Part shown: piece by piece, positions 2,014-39,516 of the stretch
How positions within the stretch are numbered: position 1 is the first letter of the stretch
Layout of the letters: every line of letters starts with the position of its first letter
Sequence record: MZ997840.1
From: Escherichia phage ULINTec6
DNA: 44,728 bases
Direction: 5' to 3' (one strand)
Position numbers and translations under genes: made by a program
The notes under the pieces: model-generated
What the model was told of the DNA's origin: nothing
Database searches by the model: none
The model's input: only the letters and a program-made list of their open reading frames with translations

Positions 2014-2036
2014 ATTTAGCTGACACTATAAGAGAA
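2014..2036 (+). promoter_or_regulatory. Degenerate phage-promoter-like sequence (ATTTAGCTGACACTATAAGAG)
   Basis: Matches the phage promoter consensus except around the start site (TATAAG instead of TATAG); may be weak or non-functional. Confidence 0.3.
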
Positions 2037-3294: not shown

Positions 3295-5922
3295 ATGCAA
3301 GACCTACACGCTATTCAACTTCAACTTGAAGAAGAAATGTTTAACGGCGGTATCCGTCGCTTTGAAGCGGACCAACAACGCCAGATTGCATCCGGTAATG
3401 AATCAGACACGGCATGGAATCGCCGCTTATTGTCCGAACTAATCGCACCTATGGCTGAAGGTATTCAGGCATACAAGGAAGAGTATGAAGGTAAAAGAGG
3501 CCGTGCACCGCGTGCATTGGCTTTCATTAACTGCGTAGAAAACGAAGTGGCAGCATATATCACGATGAAAATCGTTATGGATATGCTGAATACAGACGTT
3601 ACCTTACAAGCTATCGCTATGAATGTAGCGGACCGCATCGAGGACCAAGTACGTTTTAGCAAGCTGGAAGGTCACGCAGCTAAGTACTTTGAGAAAGTAA
3701 AGAAGTCACTTAAGGCGAGCAAGACGAAATCTTATCGTCATGCACACAACGTAGCGGTAGTGGCTGAGAAGTCTGTAGCTGACCGCGACGCGGATTTCTC
3801 CCGCTGGGAAGCATGGCCTAAAGATACCTTGCTGCAAATCGGTATGACCTTGCTCGAAATCTTGGAGAATAGCGTATTCTTCAATGGTCAACCTGTCTTC
3901 CTTCGTACCTTGCGCACTAACGGCGGCAAACATGGTATCTACTACTTACAGACTAGTGAGCACGTAGGCGAGTGGATTACAGCGTTCAAAGAGCACGTAG
4001 CACAACTAAGCCCAGCTTATGCACCTTGCGTTATCCCTCCGCGCCCTTGGGTGTCTCCTTTTAATGGTGGGTTTCACACTGAGAAGGTGGCTAGCCGCAT
4101 CCGCCTTGTTAAAGGCAACCGTGAGCACGTCCGTAAACTGACCAAAAAGCAGATGCCAGCAGTTTACAAGGCCGTTAACGCTTTGCAGGCGACTAAATGG
4201 CAGGTTAACAAGGAAGTATTGCAGGTGGTAGAGGACGTTATACGTCTCGACCTCGGCTATGGTGTACCTTCCTTTAAACCACTAATCGACCGCGAGAACA
4301 AACCGGCTAATCCCGTGCCGTTAGAATTTCAGCACCTTCGCGGACGTGAACTGAAAGAAATGCTTACGCCGGAACAGTGGCAATCCTTCATTAACTGGAA
4401 AGGTGAATGCACCAAGCTGTACACCGCAGAAACTAAGCGTGGCAGCAAGTCGGCGGCTACGGTCCGCATGGTTGGTCAGGCCCGTAAATATAGCCAGTTC
4501 GACGCAATCTACTTCGTGTATGCACTGGACAGCCGCAGCCGCGTCTACGCGCAATCTAGCACTCTCTCACCGCAATCAAACGACTTAGGCAAGGCACTCC
4601 TACGGTTTACCGAAGGGCAGCCGCTAAATAGCGCTGAGGCGCTTAAGTGGTTTTTGGTGAACGGAGCTAATAACTGGGGTTGGGATAAGAAAACTTTCGA
4701 CGTGCGCACCGCTAACGTGCTGGACGGCGAGTTTCAAGACATGTGCCGCGACATTGCAGCGGATCCTCTGACCTTCACTCAATGGGTAAATGCCGATTCC
4801 CCTTATGGCTTCCTTGCATGGTGCTTTGAATATGCGCGTTATCTGGATGCACTGGATGAAGGCACGCAAGACCAATTCATGACGCACCTCCCAGTCCATC
4901 AAGATGGTAGTTGTTCTGGTATCCAGCACTACAGTGCTATGCTACGCGATGCAGTAGGTGCGAAAGCAGTAAACCTTAAGCCCTCTGACTCCCCTCAAGA
5001 TATTTATGGTGCCGTTGCGCAGGTAGTAATTCAGAAGAATTATGCATACATGAATGCAGAGGATGCGGAAACCTTCACTTCTGGCAGCGTGACTTTAACA
5101 GGTGCGGAACTGCGTAGCATGGCTAGTGCGTGGGATATGATAGGAATCACTCGCGGCCTGACCAAAAAGCCCGTAATGACACTACCTTACGGCAGCACAC
5201 GTCTAACCTGCCGTGAGTCAGTGATTGATTATATCGTTGATTTAGAAGAAAAAGAGGCCCAACGGGCTATTGCGGAAGGGCGTACCGCCAACCCTGTACA
5301 TCCTTTTGATAATGACCGTAAGGACAGCCTGACACCTAGCGCAGCTTATAACTATATGACAGCTCTAATCTGGCCTTCTATCTCGGAAGTGGTTAAAGCT
5401 CCTATAGTGGCAATGAAAATGATTCGTCAGCTTGCACGTTTCGCAGCTAAAAGAAACGAAGGCTTAGAATATCCCTTACCAACTGGCTTCATCTTGCAAC
5501 AAAAGATAATGGCTACCGATATGCTCCGCGTATCCACTTGCTTGATGGGTGAAATCAAGATGAGTCTCCAGATTGAAACAGATGTAGTTGATGAAACGGC
5601 AATGATGGGTGCGGCTGCTCCTAACTTCGTCCACGGTCACGATGCTAGCCACCTGATTCTGACTGTATGTGACCTAGTGGATAAAGGTATTACATCCATT
5701 GCAGTCATCCATGATTCTTTCGGTACTCATGCAGGGCGTACCGCAGACCTGCGGGATAGCTTAAGGGGAGAAATGGTTAAGATGTATCAAAACCATAATG
5801 CCCTGCAAAACCTGCTAGATGTGCACGAAGAGCGTTGGTTAGTAGACACCGGAATCCAAGTACCAAAGCAAGGGGAGTTTGACCTTAACGAAATCTTAGT
5901 TTCAGACTATTGTTTCGCATAA
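3295..5922 (+). CDS. Phage single-subunit DNA-dependent RNA polymerase (T7 gene 1 family)
   Basis: 875 aa; C-terminus ...[12 protein letters not shown] matches T7 RNAP ...LRDILESDFAFA; [18 protein letters not shown] and IHDSFGTH catalytic motifs present. Confidence 0.97.
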
Positions 5923-6013: not shown

Positions 6014-6036
6014 ATTTACCGGACACTATAGGATAG
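6014..6036 (+). promoter_or_regulatory. Phage RNAP promoter (ATTTACCGGACACTATAGGA)
   Basis: Match to the SP6-type consensus GACACTATAG with upstream ATTTAC. Confidence 0.75.
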
Positions 6037-6207: not shown

Positions 6208-6230
6208 ATTTACCGGACAGTATAGATAAG
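6208..6230 (+). promoter_or_regulatory. Phage promoter variant (ATTTACCGGACAGTATAGATAAG)
   Basis: One substitution in the core (GACAGTATAG); precedes the gene 1.1-like ORF. Confidence 0.5.
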
Positions 6231-9850: not shown

Positions 9851-9889
9851 AGGCTCTTATTAAGTACATTAAATAACTGGAGATTGATT

Positions 9890-10612
9890 ATGTATAAATT
9901 AGTATTGAATGCAGGTGATTATGTTCGTAACATCAATGAAGCCTCACGTCGTTATCGTTGCCGTGGTGTAGTAGCTCGTGTAAGTGAGAACATGTATCAT
10001 GTAGAATATGATGATGGTATTAAGGCTTCTTATCACAAGAAAACCGCACATAAATATCTTGAAAAGGTTGTAGAGGTAAACAATCAATGTAAGTGCATAC
10101 ATGATGAGGTTTGCGATAAGTGTGCACGTCAGGTAGTTAAAGCCTTTACCTTTGCTCAACGCTATGGTTCTATGTATGGTGCTGGTAACAAGACCCTTGC
10201 AGAAGCAGCTTGGAAGACATTGCAGTTTGAGCGTTCAAATGGACGACGCACCACACTTAAGAAAGAGCGCCGCAATGTAATCACTGGTAAGACTCAAAGT
10301 GAGATGATTAAGCAATATGGCACTGCATTAGGTGTTACACAGTTCAATACTCGTGCATTGGGTAAATCCACAGGGCAAGCTATGGTGAAAATTGGTGAAG
10401 CTATGCTGCACCCAAATGTGCCTGTGCGAATCTTGGATGTTGACCATGCAATCACAGAGCATGGCACACCACGGCGTGTAGCTAATAATCATTTCGCCGA
10501 CACTATAGAAGGCATTATTCATAAGCAAGGGTTGAAAGGTCTTCACATCTTAAATGGTGAAGAATTACTGTACCTACCTATCGTTACTGAAGAAACATAC
10601 GTGAATATCTAA
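9890..10612 (+). CDS. Hypothetical protein (241 aa)
   Basis: ORF track, start adjusted to ATG 9890 after CTGGAG RBS; no confident family assignment. Confidence 0.55.
   Translation: MYKLVLNAGDYVRNINEASRRYRCRGVVARVSENMYHVEYDDGIKASYHKKTAHKYLEKVVEVNNQCKCIHDEVCDKCARQVVKAFTFAQRYGSMYGAGNKTLAEAAWKTLQFERSNGRRTTLKKERRNVITGKTQSEMIKQYGTALGVTQFNTRALGKSTGQAMVKIGEAMLHPNVPVRILDVDHAITEHGTPRRVANNHFADTIEGIIHKQGLKGLHILNGEELLYLPIVTEETYVNI
10491..10512 (+). promoter_or_regulatory. Promoter-like sequence inside a CDS (ATTTCGCCGACACTATAGAAGG)
   Basis: Core GACACTATAGAAG intact, upstream half diverged; within ORF 9890..10612. Confidence 0.35.
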
Positions 10613-11410: not shown

Positions 11411-13943
11411 TTGGAAGAAGGAAGCAGAAGGCCGTATTCTAGTGATGGATGCGGAAGCTAAAGGCCTCCTTGATGCTATCCGATATGGACACCGCGAAGA
11501 TGTGCATATCATTTGCTGTATGGACTTGCTTACTACCGAGGAGTTCCTCTTCTTCGACCCATATGAGATGCGTGACCCTGAAGCAAGAGAGCGTCTCAAG
11601 GAGTGGGAAGGACACCAAGACGGTGATTTGGTTGACGGTGTTAACTTTCTGAAGTACTGTGAAGCTATTGTGTCACAGAACTTCCTAGGGTACGATGGGC
11701 TTCTCTTTGAGAAAGCATTCCCTGACATCTGGAAGGGCTTTAACTACACCGAGAGGCGCGGCAAGGGCAGACTACGTGCTGACCTGTGCCCTGTTCGAGT
11801 CATGGATACGCTGGTCATGAGTCGCCTATTAAACCCCGATAGACGCCTTCCTCCGCAAGCATATGCCAAAGGTATGGGTAACGTCGCCCCTCACTCAATT
11901 GAGGCGCACGGCATCCGTATAGGCCGCTATAAACCGGAGAACGAGGACTGGTCTAAACTAACTGACCACATGGTTCACCGTGTACGTGAGGACGTGGCGA
12001 TTGGTCGTGACTTGTTCCTCTGGCTCTTTAACGGGGAATGGATGGAGCACAAACGCCGTGGCGTGAATAAACGCACTGGCCTAGGCATTGAGACAGCCTT
12101 CCACATGGAGTCCATTGTGGCGCTGGAGATGAGCCGTCAGGCAGAGCGTGGATTCCGTCTGGATATTGACAAAGCACTAGCGCGATGCGAAGAACTGGAC
12201 GCTAAGATTGATGAGACAGTCGCAGCGTTCCGCCCTCACATGCCTATGCGTATCAAGTCTAAACCTTTTAAACCGGAAGAAAAGAATGAAGTATGCCAAC
12301 GCGCAAATGAGTATGGAGCTAGCAACAATATACCTACTGTCCTTGACCCCTCACACTTTCTTCATGCCGAGAGACGAGGAGATCGCAAGACAGTATGGAG
12401 TGTCACTACTAAGTCTGGTGATTGGTCGGCTAGTGTCAAGAAAGACTTTCCTCACCTTAGAGGAAACCGTAATGACACGCCAAGTATCAAGTGGATTGGC
12501 GCTTACTCGCCTGTTACTTTCGAAGAGATTCCCTTGGGTAACAGGGATACAGTTAAGCAAGTGCTCTATGATTATGGGTGGAAAGGTGTTGAATTTAACG
12601 ATACCGAGCAAGCGCATCTGGATGAGTATGGAGTGTTACCCAAACCTTGGAGTGGGAAGATAAATGAAAAGTCCCTTACTTTATGGCAAGAGAGAGCCGC
12701 ACGTGAAGGTAAAACAGTCCCTGATTGGTGCTTGGGTATCGCTGCATGGTACATACTCGTATCCCGTCGTGGTACGATCCTTAACCGTGGTGACGTTGAA
12801 GCCTTCGACCAGAAGGGGGTGTGGCCTTCGCAAGCTGGTGTACGAAAGTGTCGCGGCCTTGTACCTGTAGCATTTAACAAGGAGTTAGGAATCAATGCGC
12901 AGCAATACTATGAGAGGTATGGGTGTTGGCCTACGTCTGACAAGGATGACGGGGAGTGGCGTGTTCCAGCTATTGCTATTAGTATTGGTACTTCTACGTT
13001 CCGTATGCGTCATCGTAACGTGGTTAATATTCCTGCCCGTGGTTTGTATCCTTTACGTGATTTATTCATAGCAGGTAAAGGTAAGCTAATCCTTGGTTGT
13101 GATGGCGCTGGTCTTGAACTACGTGTACTATCTCACTTCATGAATGACCCTGAGTATCAAGATATTGTACTGCATGGTGATATACATACTCATAACCAGA
13201 TGAAGGCTGGTCTTCCCAAGCGTGACATGGCGAAGACATTTATATATGCCTTCCTATATGGGTCTGGTATAGCTAACCTTGCAGCAGTATGCGGTGTTAC
13301 TGAGGAAGAAATGAAGGAAGTTGTGGCAAGATTTGAGATTGAACTACCATCTCTTGCACGTCTTCGTGAGAATGTTATCGCACAAGGTAACAAGTTTGGC
13401 TATCTACAAGCACCTGATGGGCATTGGGGTCGCATCCGTATGTCTGGTGGTGAACTTAAAGAGCACACTATGCTTAACGTATTGCTCCAGATGACTGGCT
13501 CTCTGTGTATGAAATACGCATTGGTCAGAGCGTTTGCGGTGATGCGCAAGGAAGGTGTGGCTCTAGATAGTATGGGAAACCCTTGCGGTGTGGCTAACGT
13601 GCACGATGAAATCCAAATGGAAGTTCCTGAAGATGAGGTCTTGTATCTCAACTATGACTTGCCTTTCACCTTAGAAGGGTTCGAAACAGAGAAGGCTGCT
13701 GTGAAAGCAGTGTTCGATGCAGAGGAGAAACGTGTTCATGTTGATTCCGAAGGGCGCATGTGGTCTGCTGCAAATCTCATTAGCGTTGATGCTGATGCTG
13801 GTGTACTTCATTGCCAGCGTCGTTATCACCGTGCAGGACATATCATTGCCGATGCAATGACTTGGGCTGGTTATTATTTGAAGATGCGTTGTCCGATGGC
13901 AGGTGAGTATAAGATTGGTGCAAGCTGGAAGGAAACACACTGA
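11397..13943 (+). CDS. DNA polymerase (family A, T7 gene 5-like) with 3'-5' exonuclease domain
   Basis: Motif B-like RDMAKTFIYAFLYGSG, motif C-like VHDEIQMEV, N-terminal exonuclease motif LVMDAEAKGL; start set to ATG 11397 after GGAG RBS. Confidence 0.93.
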   Translation: MKSIDWKKEAEGRILVMDAEAKGLLDAIRYGHREDVHIICCMDLLTTEEFLFFDPYEMRDPEARERLKEWEGHQDGDLVDGVNFLKYCEAIVSQNFLGYDGLLFEKAFPDIWKGFNYTERRGKGRLRADLCPVRVMDTLVMSRLLNPDRRLPPQAYAKGMGNVAPHSIEAHGIRIGRYKPENEDWSKLTDHMVHRVREDVAIGRDLFLWLFNGEWMEHKRRGVNKRTGLGIETAFHMESIVALEMSRQAERGFRLDIDKALARCEELDAKIDETVAAFRPHMPMRIKSKPFKPEEKNEVCQRANEYGASNNIPTVLDPSHFLHAERRGDRKTVWSVTTKSGDWSASVKKDFPHLRGNRNDTPSIKWIGAYSPVTFEEIPLGNRDTVKQVLYDYGWKGVEFNDTEQAHLDEYGVLPKPWSGKINEKSLTLWQERAAREGKTVPDWCLGIAAWYILVSRRGTILNRGDVEAFDQKGVWPSQAGVRKCRGLVPVAFNKELGINAQQYYERYGCWPTSDKDDGEWRVPAIAISIGTSTFRMRHRNVVNIPARGLYPLRDLFIAGKGKLILGCDGAGLELRVLSHFMNDPEYQDIVLHGDIHTHNQMKAGLPKRDMAKTFIYAFLYGSGIANLAAVCGVTEEEMKEVVARFEIELPSLARLRENVIAQGNKFGYLQAPDGHWGRIRMSGGELKEHTMLNVLLQMTGSLCMKYALVRAFAVMRKEGVALDSMGNPCGVANVHDEIQMEVPEDEVLYLNYDLPFTLEGFETEKAAVKAVFDAEEKRVHVDSEGRMWSAANLISVDADAGVLHCQRRYHRAGHIIADAMTWAGYYLKMRCPMAGEYKIGASWKETH

Positions 13944-24633: not shown

Positions 24634-24656
24634 ATTTACTGGACACTATAGAAGGG
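24634..24656 (+). promoter_or_regulatory. Phage RNAP promoter driving the capsid gene (ATTTACTGGACACTATAGAAGGG)
   Basis: Full consensus; transcript starts with the stem-loop gggagaaatgtctccc, analogous to the T7 gene 10 leader. Confidence 0.85.
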
Positions 24657-25915: not shown

Positions 25916-25950
25916 ATGCCCTATCTACCCTGCGTAGGTAGGGTTCTTTT
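25916..25950 (+). terminator. T-phi-like terminator after the capsid gene
   Basis: Hairpin ccctatctacc-ctgcgta-ggtaggg followed by TTCTTTTT. Confidence 0.55.
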
Positions 25951-29104: not shown

Positions 29105-29826
29105 TGGCTATAGGTTCAGCCGTTATGTCTGGTATGTCTTCTATTGGTAGTATGTTTGCAGGCAGCGGTGCAGCAGCCGCTGCTGGAGGCACTGCCGCAG
29201 GTGGCGGAGGTTTGCTAGGTTCACTAGGTGGATTCCTAAGTGGTTCCACTGCTGGCTTCTCTAATGCTGGCCTCCTTGGTGCTGGCCTTCAAGGTTTAGG
29301 CTTGATTGGTGATCTCTTTGGTGGAAGTGATGAAGCCAAGGCAATGAAGAAAGCACAAGAAGAGCAATGGCGGCAGCAGCTTATTGCTACACAAGAGGCG
29401 TACAAGACAGTGGCAGACGCAGAGCGTTCTGCTGCTAAACAATATCATGCAGATGCAATAAGCAATCAGGCTTCACTACTACAGCAGCGAGCACAGGTTG
29501 CATTACTAGCAGGTGCTACTGGTACTGGTGGTAACTCTGTATCTTCTATGCTGAATGACTTAGCAGCAGAGGGCGGAAGGAACCAGAGTACAATTATTGA
29601 TAACTATGAGAATCAGAAGATTAACTTCACTAATCAGCTTAAGTCCATCCAGCGAGGTGGGCAAATGCAGATGCGTGAGTTTAAGAAACCTTCTGCTGTG
29701 AGCACCTTGGTTCAAGGTATCCCAAGTCTGGCTTCTGCTTATGTAACTGGTAGCAAGTCGGGTATGGCTTTAGGTAAAGCTCTAACGGATTCTCGTACAT
29801 ATTCATCTGGAACAAGAGGTATTTAA
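29104..29826 (+). CDS. Internal virion protein (Gly/Ala-rich)
   Basis: Position after the tail tubular genes; Gly/Ala-rich N-terminus; AGGAGG RBS then ATG 29104. Confidence 0.65.
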   Translation: MAIGSAVMSGMSSIGSMFAGSGAAAAAGGTAAGGGGLLGSLGGFLSGSTAGFSNAGLLGAGLQGLGLIGDLFGGSDEAKAMKKAQEEQWRQQLIATQEAYKTVADAERSAAKQYHADAISNQASLLQQRAQVALLAGATGTGGNSVSSMLNDLAAEGGRNQSTIIDNYENQKINFTNQLKSIQRGGQMQMREFKKPSAVSTLVQGIPSLASAYVTGSKSGMALGKALTDSRTYSSGTRGI

Positions 29827-37118: not shown

Positions 37119-37313
37119 ATGATTAACTCCGAACTGGTAGATAGTGGTGTGAAGCTTGCGCCACCTGCATTAGTCTCAGGTGGGTACTTCCTCGGTATCA
37201 GTTGGAATGATTGGGTTCTTATAGCTACATTCATTTATACTGTATTACAAATTGGCGATTGGTTTTATGTAAAATACAAAGCTAGGAGAGATAAGCGTGA
37301 GCGTACACAATAA
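37119..37313 (+). CDS. Putative holin (small membrane protein with charged C-terminus)
   Basis: 64 aa with hydrophobic segments and a highly charged tail (KYKARRDKRERTQ); at the T7 gene 17.5 position. Confidence 0.55.
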   Translation: MINSELVDSGVKLAPPALVSGGYFLGISWNDWVLIATFIYTVLQIGDWFYVKYKARRDKRERTQ

Positions 37314-37596
37314 ACATGCAGCTACAGAGGACGAGGTTGGCATTCTGCATGGTGCTATTACCAAAATCTTTAATAAGAAAGCACAGGCAATACTGGACAC
37401 TATAGAAGGAGATCCAGATGCAGCACTGCATTTAGTGTCTGGTAAAGACATTGGAGCTATGTGTAAGTGGGTTCTTGATAATGGTATTACCGCTACACCT
37501 GCTGCACAGCAGGAAGAGTCCAAGTTATCTAAGCGCCTCAAGGCTATCCGAGAGGCATCCAGTGGTAAGATAATTCAATTCACTAAGGAGGGCTGA
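37297..37596 (+). CDS. Terminase small subunit
   Basis: 99 aa, immediately upstream of and overlapping the large terminase; GTG start after AGGAGAG RBS; assignment by position. Confidence 0.6.
   Translation: MSVHNKHAATEDEVGILHGAITKIFNKKAQAILDTIEGDPDAALHLVSGKDIGAMCKWVLDNGITATPAAQQEESKLSKRLKAIREASSGKIIQFTKEG
37389..37410 (+). promoter_or_regulatory. Phage promoter embedded in the small terminase CDS (AATACTGGACACTATAGAAGGA)
   Basis: Near-full consensus inside the coding sequence. Confidence 0.55.
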
Positions 37597-39494
37597 TGGC
37601 TAAGGCAAGAGAGTCACAAGCGGAGGCTCTTGCCAGATGGGAGATGCTACAGGAGTTACAGCAGACCTTTCCGTACACATCGGAAGGTTTGCTTCTCTTT
37701 GCAGACACAGTTATCCATAACTTGATTGCAGGCAACCCTCATCTGATTCGTATGCAGGCTGACATCTTGAAGTTCCTATTCTACGGACATAAGTATCGCC
37801 TCATCGAAGCGCCTCGTGGCATCGCTAAGACAACATTATCAGCAATCTATACAGTCTTCCGTATCATACATGAACCTCACAAACGTATCATGGTGGTATC
37901 CCAAAATGCTAAGCGAGCAGAGGAAATCGCAGGTTGGGTAGTTAAAATCTTCCGTGGCTTAGACTTTCTTGAGTTTATGCTGCCGGATATCTACGCTGGG
38001 GACCGTGCATCCGTTAAGGCGTTCGAGATTCATTACACCCTACGTGGTAGTGATAAGTCTCCCTCTGTATCCTGTTACTCAATCGAAGCAGGTATGCAGG
38101 GTGCTCGTGCTGATATTATTCTAGCGGATGACGTAGAGTCGATGCAGAATGCTCGTACGGCAGCGGGCCGTGCCTTGCTTGAGGAACTGACTAAGGAGTT
38201 TGAATCTATCAACCAGTTTGGGGATATCATTTACCTTGGTACGCCTCAGAACGTAAACTCTATCTACAACAACCTACCTGCTCGTGGTTACTCTGTTCGT
38301 ATCTGGACTGCGCGTTATCCTTCAGTAGAGCAAGAGCAATGTTATGGTGACTTCCTTGCACCTATGATTGTTCAAGATATGAAGGACAACCCAGCACTTC
38401 GCTCAGGGTACGGGTTGGATGGTAATAGTGGTGCACCTTGTGCCCCTGAAATGTATGATGATGAAGTCCTGATTGAGAAGGAAATCTCTCAGGGTGCGGC
38501 TAAGTTCCAGCTTCAGTTCATGCTTAACACTCGCATGATGGATGCAGACCGCTACCCGCTTCGCTTGAACAACCTTATCTTCACTTCATTCGGTACTGAG
38601 GAAGTCCCTGTGATGCCTACGTGGAGCAACGACTCCATCAACATCATTGGAGATGCACCGAAGTATGGCAATAAACCTACAGACTTCATGTATAGACCTG
38701 TGGCCCGTCCTTATGAATGGGGGGCTGTTACCCGCAAGATTATGTATATCGACCCAGCGGGTGGTGGTAAGAACGGAGATGAAACAGGCGTGGCTATAGT
38801 CTTTCTGCACGGCACATTCATTTACGTGTATCAGTGCTTCGGTGTGCCAGGCGGATACCGTGAATCGTCCCTGAATCGCATTGTGCAGGCCGCAAAGCAG
38901 GCGGGTGTTAAAGAGGTATTCATTGAGAAGAACTTTGGTCATGGCGCGTTTGAGGCCGTTATAAAGCCATACTTTGAACGAGAGTGGCCTGTAACTCTGG
39001 AAGAGGATTACGCCACAGGACAGAAAGAGTTGCGTATCATTGAGACGCTGGAGCCACTCATGGCGGCCCACAGGCTCATCTTTAACGCAGAGATGGTGAA
39101 ATCGGACTTTGATTCGGTACAGAACTATCCGCTTGAGCTACGCATGTCCTACAGTCTTTTCAATCAAATGTCGAACATCACGATTGAGAAGAACAGCCTC
39201 CGGCACGATGACCGCCTAGACGCTCTGTATGGCGCTATACGGCAATTAACTTCTCAGATAGACTATGACGAGGTTACACGGATTAATCGCCTCAGAGCGC
39301 AGGAGATGCGCGATTACATCCATGCTATGAACACACCTCACCTCCGTAGGGCTATGCTCTATGGAGATTATGGCACTGAGCGAAGAGTAACCAACACTTC
39401 CGTGGCTATGCAGCAAAGAGTGTACGGTCAGAATTACAGGAGTAAATCGGCCAACCGAAATACACTTTCTGCAAGGATTTCAAGGACTTATTAA
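37596..39494 (+). CDS. Terminase large subunit
   Basis: 632 aa; Walker A-like EAPRGIAKTT; late position as for T7 gene 19. Confidence 0.9.
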   Translation: MAKARESQAEALARWEMLQELQQTFPYTSEGLLLFADTVIHNLIAGNPHLIRMQADILKFLFYGHKYRLIEAPRGIAKTTLSAIYTVFRIIHEPHKRIMVVSQNAKRAEEIAGWVVKIFRGLDFLEFMLPDIYAGDRASVKAFEIHYTLRGSDKSPSVSCYSIEAGMQGARADIILADDVESMQNARTAAGRALLEELTKEFESINQFGDIIYLGTPQNVNSIYNNLPARGYSVRIWTARYPSVEQEQCYGDFLAPMIVQDMKDNPALRSGYGLDGNSGAPCAPEMYDDEVLIEKEISQGAAKFQLQFMLNTRMMDADRYPLRLNNLIFTSFGTEEVPVMPTWSNDSINIIGDAPKYGNKPTDFMYRPVARPYEWGAVTRKIMYIDPAGGGKNGDETGVAIVFLHGTFIYVYQCFGVPGGYRESSLNRIVQAAKQAGVKEVFIEKNFGHGAFEAVIKPYFEREWPVTLEEDYATGQKELRIIETLEPLMAAHRLIFNAEMVKSDFDSVQNYPLELRMSYSLFNQMSNITIEKNSLRHDDRLDALYGAIRQLTSQIDYDEVTRINRLRAQEMRDYIHAMNTPHLRRAMLYGDYGTERRVTNTSVAMQQRVYGQNYRSKSANRNTLSARISRTY

Positions 39495-39516
39495 TTACTG
39501 GACACTATAGAAGGAA
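39494..39516 (+). promoter_or_regulatory. Phage RNAP promoter after the terminase (AATTACTGGACACTATAGAAGG)
   Basis: Full consensus; followed by an AT-rich repeat region and an 8-bp perfect hairpin (gggtgtac-tcct-gtacaccc). Confidence 0.8.

Follow-up and report, generated by a model that had tools for sequence, protein, structure and literature searches.

A predicted phage RNA polymerase promoter within the small terminase gene of Escherichia phage ULINTec6

SP6-like phages transcribe their middle and late genes with a single-subunit RNA polymerase of their own. That a promoter for a phage polymerase can lie inside coding sequence is already established for T7: in the T7 RefSeq record, phi4c (12671) falls within the gene 4 coding sequence (11565-13265). 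This class II promoter of gene 4A/4B has been mapped experimentally, points in the direction of the genes and feeds those located downstream. T7 also has two intergenic sites of consensus strength, phi13 and phi17, ahead of genes 13 and 17, which lie beyond the strong terminator after the capsid gene (Tphi) and re-supply the distal late genes. In the SP6 and K1-5/K1E promoters (ATTTAGGTGACACTATAGAAG and ATTTACTGGACACTATAGAAG), the core from -9 to +4 is GACACTATAGAAG, and the two types are distinguished by a specificity triplet at -12 to -10, which is C-T/C-G in the K1-5 type (Vectrevirus) and G-G-T in SP6. No promoters are annotated in the GenBank records of K1E, K1-5, SP6, LL11 and 11 other Vectrevirus phages. 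The literature searched, which did not extend to the K1-5 and K1E genome papers, yielded no promoter map of K1-5, K1E or SP6 naming the site described below, and no transcript data for any Vectrevirus or other Molineuxvirinae phage were found in it. Here we describe a segment of the small terminase gene (terS) of Escherichia phage ULINTec6 that carries the same core as these promoters and differs from them in being intragenic and in having CAA for ATT at -17, -16 and -15. We consider it likely that the phage's own RNA polymerase uses this segment, placed within the terS reading frame, as a working promoter.

The window, i.e. the whole stretch of 44,728 nucleotides that was analysed (MZ997840.1), is by sequence comparison a Vectrevirus genome of the SP6-like K1-5/K1E group. 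Around the terS site, a 4-kb stretch shares 92-97% identity with Vectrevirus phages (ULINTec7, K1-5, K1E and others; Autographiviridae, Molineuxvirinae), and the gene order of the window agrees with that of K1E throughout. A sequence-only reading of this DNA had placed a promoter within the small terminase gene, at 37389-37410. The sequence given for these positions (AATACTGGACACTATAGAAGGA, + strand) is exact and the gene assignment holds, as the product matches PHROG 891 'terminase small subunit' (E 1e-25) and Pfam PF11123 DNA_Packaging_2 (57 bits, compared with a cut-off of 27.5), and the K1E and K1-5 records label the homologue gp39/small terminase. The peptide assigned to the segment, AILDTIEG, is likewise encoded there (codons GCA ATA CTG GAC ACT ATA GAA GGA). 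The features considered here are listed in Table 1.

Table 1. Coordinates of promoters, promoter-like sites, genes and a terminator in the window
Feature	Position	Strand	Remarks
Promoter-like site	2014-2036	+	ATTTAGCTGACACTATAAGAGAA; 28.8 bits; precedes two small genes and the RNA polymerase gene
Single-subunit RNA polymerase gene	3295-5922		
Promoter-like site	6208-6230	+	ATTTACCGGACAGTATAGATAAG; 22.1 bits; intergenic, ~190 nt 3' of the 6014 promoter; also in K1E
Gene-10 homologue (PHROG 6703)	9884..10612	+	Hosts the 10491 site
Second intragenic promoter-like site	10491..10513	+	ATTTCGCCGACACTATAGAAGGC; predicted start 10508, 115 nt before next gene
Canonical promoter ahead of major capsid gene	24634..24656	+	37.6 bits; last promoter upstream of the terS site
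Terminator (predicted), just after major capsid gene	25918..25944	+	Strong hairpin with 11-bp stem, then T-run TCTTTTTGTT
Small terminase gene (terS, gp39 homologue)	37297..37596	+	GTG start, 99 aa; predicted promoter in codons 31-38
Intragenic promoter (predicted), -17 to +6	37388..37410	+	CAATACTGGACACTATAGAAGGA
Large terminase gene (terL)	37596..39494	+	Own AAGGAGG ribosome site; ATG overlaps terS stop
Canonical intergenic promoter just after terL	39493..39515	+	AATTACTGGACACTATAGAAGGA; closest sequence match to the terS site

Promoter copies were scored with a 23-bp matrix derived from 10 copies located between genes or at the end of one, referred to here as intergenic. The segment had been described as a near-consensus phage promoter, and this description is borne out: it scores 25.0 bits and is a member of the phage's own promoter class in the orientation of the genes. 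When the whole window was scanned, the terS site ranked 11th of ~89,000 positions. Thirteen sites scored at least 20 bits, all of them on the + strand, and no site fell between 10 and 20 bits; the best non-promoter position reached 9.1 bits and the maximum among 200 dinucleotide shuffles was 17.1 bits. In K1E, the same 13 sites are found at homologous places. Scores of the intergenic promoters range from 28.8 to 38.6 bits, so that the terS site lies just below the weakest copy, which itself drops to 23.7 bits once it is excluded from the matrix. No sigma-70-like site was detected near 37389 on the + strand and counts were at the level of shuffled sequence, leaving a host-type promoter unsupported.

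As can be seen from the alignment of copies, the terS site has the consensus base at every position from -14 to +6. The core is matched exactly (13 of 13 positions, 37396-37408), with G at +1. This 13-mer occurs in 8 exact copies and, when up to two mismatches are allowed, 12 times on the + strand, with ~1.3 matches expected by chance; one further copy with two mismatches, located on the - strand at 5399-5411, scores 5 bits and is not promoter-like. The specificity triplet at the terS site is CTG, as in 6 of the 10 intergenic promoters, which makes it K1-5-type. The upstream element from -17 to -13 reads CAATA (two of five positions at consensus, four of five A/T), compared with ATTTA in the consensus, or AATTA in two copies. 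The terS site shares 21 of 23 bases with the promoter just after terL and differs from it at -17 and -15 only; this promoter was found in all related loci that reach that far. Transcription had been proposed to begin at about 37406. The aligned copies give the consensus ATTTACTGGACACTATAGAAGRR, in which +1 is the G that follows TATA, and the predicted start is therefore the G at 37405. From there to the ATG of terL the distance is 191 nt; for the intergenic copies, the next ORF is 25-373 nt away.

Some indication of the expected strength comes from a library of T7 promoter variants. Active variants retained the original base at -17 to -15 in 78-85% of cases, the input being 70%, and at -9 to -7 in ~99% (PMC5937735). 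A T-to-C change at -17 gave an RNA/DNA ratio of 149 (wild type, 141-188), and a C-to-T change at -7 gave a ratio of 0.9, i.e. ~0.5% activity (PMC5937735). By analogy, the upstream mismatches of the terS site should be tolerated and at most have a weakening effect. Since -17, -16 and -15 all differ from consensus, the strength of the site is probably below that of the intergenic promoters.

The segment had also been suggested to be under both coding and regulatory constraint. Codon choice, change at silent sites and the nature of the residual mismatches agree with this, the silent-site signal being modest (empirical p ~0.045). Given the peptide ILDTIE and the codon usage of the window, the probability of the codons ATA CTG GAC ACT ATA GAA is ~4e-4. 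ATA accounts for 15.6% of Ile codons, and both Ile codons of the site are ATA in 32 of 32 Vectrevirus sequences. When 30 distinct holin-terS-terL sequences were arranged on a neighbour-joining tree, the third positions of the six core codons required 2 parsimony steps, compared with a mean of 12.5 per six-codon window. Windows at least as quiet make up ~4.5% of those in the holin, terS and terL genes (3.3% in a version of the test based on pairwise diversity), and silent-site conservation at the terS site is thus suggestive, not overwhelming. Zero silent-site variation across 30 Vectrevirus sequences was also observed at the 3' end of terS (37530-37557) and within terL (39245-39275); both stretches are as quiet as the promoter codons or quieter, and no motif was found that accounts for their quietness.

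Of the three mismatches that remain at the terS site, two cannot be removed silently: -17 falls on the second base of the Ala codon and -15 on the first of the Ile codon, and the codons fix both. At -16, which is a silent site, three lineages (L010, L014 and L067) carry the consensus T. Apart from -16, the predicted promoter is therefore as good as the protein allows. It could be argued that selection on the peptide AILDTIE, or an RNA or translational signal, is what conserves the segment, and that its resemblance to a promoter is incidental. The AIL-D-x-I-E peptide is indeed conserved well beyond the genus. However, outgroups encode nearly the same peptide with other codons, e.g. ATC CTC GAT GCT ATC GAG, and the protein therefore does not dictate the bases of the terS site; as to a signal in the RNA, the predicted leader has an unremarkable fold and Rfam gave no matches anywhere in the window. 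We regard this explanation as very improbable.

Conservation and origin of the site were assessed in 32 Vectrevirus terS sequences, comprising the window, K1E, K1-5, 12 IMG/VR contigs, 6 metagenome contigs and 11 further GenBank genomes; the metagenome scan yielded 12 loci only. The offset of the site from the terS start is +91 in all Vectrevirus loci, and the sequence from -15 to +4 is intact in 29 of the 32. Each of the three exceptions has a single substitution: a silent C-to-T change at -7 (L008), an A-to-G change at -8 that replaces Asp with Gly (L014) and an A-to-G change at +3 (L004). By the T7 analogy, the promoter is probably inactive in L008 and L014, in which case the element would be dispensable; that core positions (-8, -7 or +3) are substituted in natural variants indicates in any event that the site can be lost.

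Outside the core Vectrevirus sequences, the promoter is absent from the homologous place in SP6, PST_H2, a Proteus/Klebsiella-type clade, PP1 and the contig L028, with 9-12 mismatches. The homologous peptide is AILAAVEE in SP6 and AILDAIED in the Proteus/Klebsiella-type clade, which has SP6-type promoters; in Salmonella phage PST_H2 the homologous place scores -19 bits. Pectobacterium phage PP1 has a promoter motif of its own (AATTAGGGCGGACTATAGAAGG), of which there is no copy in its terS. In L028, the terS gene is 85% identical and the promoter that follows terL belongs to the Vectrevirus type (TAATTACTGGACACTATAG); the homologous place reads CAATTCTTGATGCTATCGAGG, with 10 mismatches. As all outgroups are without the site, it is derived within core Vectrevirus, having arisen there from coding sequence that already matched in part. 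These relatives manage without a promoter in terS, which indicates that the site is not essential. Compared to outgroup sequences such as CAATCCTCGATGCTATCGAGGAC, about six changes are found (at -13, -10, -7, -6, -1 and +3), all of which go towards the consensus; five leave the protein unaltered, and the other turns an Ala codon (GCT) into a Thr codon (ACT).

Two further observations concern the neighbourhood of terS in these phages. In several Vectrevirus loci (L057, L061, L064, L022 and L008), a 444-nt ORF for an HNH homing endonuclease is located exactly between terS and terL, directly 3' of the internal promoter, and a different endonuclease splits terL in K1E, vB_EcoP_C and PST_H2 (within-terL loci L001/L036, L065 and L066); the ULINTec6 window has neither. 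In Escherichia phage EC120 (L064, locus 1844-2236), ~390 nt are present between the holin gene and terS that have no counterpart in other Vectrevirus phages, where the two genes overlap.

The dispensability of the site in variants and outgroups raises the possibility that the segment is a promoter look-alike with negligible activity, which arose by drift or by a single short conversion in the Vectrevirus ancestor and persists in a young genus in a stretch that varies little. A look-alike would accord with silent-site conservation that places the core codons only in the lowest 3-5% of windows, with the equally quiet patches at 37530-37557 and 39245-39275 that hold no known signal, and with the three mismatches in the AT-rich upstream part. 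On the other hand, six independent positions have all moved to the consensus, at the cost of an Ala-to-Thr replacement in one case, the two ATA codons are invariant within an improbable set of codons, the stretch from -14 to +6 is perfect, and the upstream positions that are mismatched here are those at which T7 promoters tolerate change (PMC5937735).

An additional argument against a look-alike comes from a second internal site. A weaker internal copy had been noted at 10491-10512 and proved to be real (ATTTCGCCGACACTATAGAAGG, 20.0 bits); it lies within the gene-10 homologue, where it encodes FADTIEG. This copy is kept in all 9 Vectrevirus loci aligned at that place, and an SP6-type version (TTACGTGACACTATAGG, LRDTIG) occupies almost the same position in SP6 gp11 and in related clades, although protein identity is only 41-57%. 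Judged from these alignments, it is evolutionarily older and more widely conserved than the terS site. Its retention in the same genomes across much deeper divergence indicates that internal promoter copies are maintained in this group, and we consider it unlikely that the terS segment is an inactive look-alike.

SP6 (L003) has a late intragenic promoter-like site of its own in gp36 (29393-29415; CGCTAGGTGACACTATAGGTG, LGDTIG). It is intact in the closest relatives of SP6 only; the next clade has GACGCTATAGG (DAIG), again with a Thr/Ala difference at -6 to -4, and nothing was found in the window at the homologous place (31605). The internal sites in gene 10, gp36 and terS all point with the genes and all read Asp-Thr-Ile (GAC ACT ATA); the third reading frame would hold a TAG stop. 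They either score towards the weak end of the range or have GGTG for GAAG at the start. The gene-10 site is common to Vectrevirus and SP6-type phages, the gp36 site is limited to SP6 and its closest relatives and the terS site to core Vectrevirus, a distribution that suggests lineage-specific turnover of internal late promoters. Through the site at 2014, found likewise in K1E (2779) and carrying A rather than G where transcription should start, the polymerase could transcribe the gene that encodes it.

If the terS segment is a working promoter, as we favour, the polymerase would bind from -17 to -5, melt the DNA from -4 to +2 and initiate at 37405. The resulting RNA would begin with a 191-nt untranslated leader consisting of the 3' two-thirds of terS, followed by terL, the first complete gene, with its own ribosome site, and then by all downstream genes. 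Consistent with the claim that transcripts would read through terL, the terminator scan detected no hairpin with a good T-run from 37405 to the end of terL and no convincing terminator before the next promoter. The predicted 5' region of 216 nt folds no better than shuffled sequences (z = -1.38). A new ORF on the predicted transcript was considered and rejected: the first AUG (37418), preceded by AAGGAG, opens an out-of-frame ORF of 5 codons, and AAGGAG is not conserved, most relatives having GAAGAAGA.

The layout of capsid promoter, terminator and long late operon is common to T7 and the window, whose terminator takes the place of T7 Tphi. In the window, the matrix scan found no promoter-like site other than the terS site between the terminator at 25918-25944 and the end of terL (39494). 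As the sole phage promoter in the 11.5 kb between this terminator and terL, the terS site would top up terL independently of terS, and its role is most likely a modest boost of terL transcription. Like T7 phi13 and phi17, it lies downstream of the post-capsid terminator and would re-supply distal late genes; T7 uses two intergenic sites of consensus strength for this, whereas the window has a single one, within terS, that would serve terL only. The terS site is thus most likely a booster promoter of the phi13/phi17 kind, probably weaker. Its resemblance to phi4c lies in being a coding-embedded promoter for a single-subunit polymerase that points with the genes and would feed those downstream; the two differ in polymerase, consensus, host gene (primase/helicase for phi4c) and temporal class (middle for phi4c), and phi4c has been mapped by experiment whereas the terS site is predicted.

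In terms of stoichiometry there is no obvious reason to raise terL relative to terS, which argues against a boost of terL and leaves room for a use at the DNA level. For some T7 promoters, roles as replication origins and in concatemer processing and packaging have been proposed. The polymerase might likewise be recruited to the terS site mainly for a transcription-primed secondary origin, or for concatemer processing or packaging near the right end: the site is in the right-hand fifth of the genome, adjoining the packaging genes, and the tandem promoters at 6014 and 6208, in the gap after the RNA polymerase gene, recall T7 phi1.1A/B at the primary origin, so that promoters in this phage may have replication roles. 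Yet consensus promoters at 39493 and 41174 are already nearer to the right end, the sequence beside the site showed neither AT-rich nor repeat features of the kind typical of origins, and the structure of the leader is unremarkable (z = -1.4). We consider a primarily DNA-level function rather improbable, and retain a promoter that boosts terL as the preferred reading.

With phi4c as precedent, the terS site is a lineage-specific case of a phage-polymerase promoter inside coding sequence. It might in addition be taken as a clear-cut case in nature of a promoter born within an essential gene, although we doubt that it is one. A segment that matched at 13 of 23 positions may have been converted, perhaps in one step by short-patch gene conversion from a canonical copy. 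The price would have been one Ala-to-Thr replacement and two less-used ATA codons for Ile, and the gain an uncoupling of terL from terS; SP6 appears to have gained a counterpart in gene 36 independently. If true, this would suggest that a late booster promoter has been selected for repeatedly among SP6-like phages, with turnover from lineage to lineage.

Phages of the K1-5/K1E type are used in therapy and as polymerase and promoter toolkits. Recoding or codon-optimising terS would silently destroy the predicted promoter, and a fragment carrying it, if cloned beside the K1E polymerase, could give rise to unexpected transcription. The understanding of T7-like phage transcription is unchanged by the terS site; the arrangement is an ordinary one for T7-like phages. 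At this locus, a putative regulatory signal and a protein are written on the same bases, the compromise between them is visible, and the origin of the signal can be dated to within one genus.
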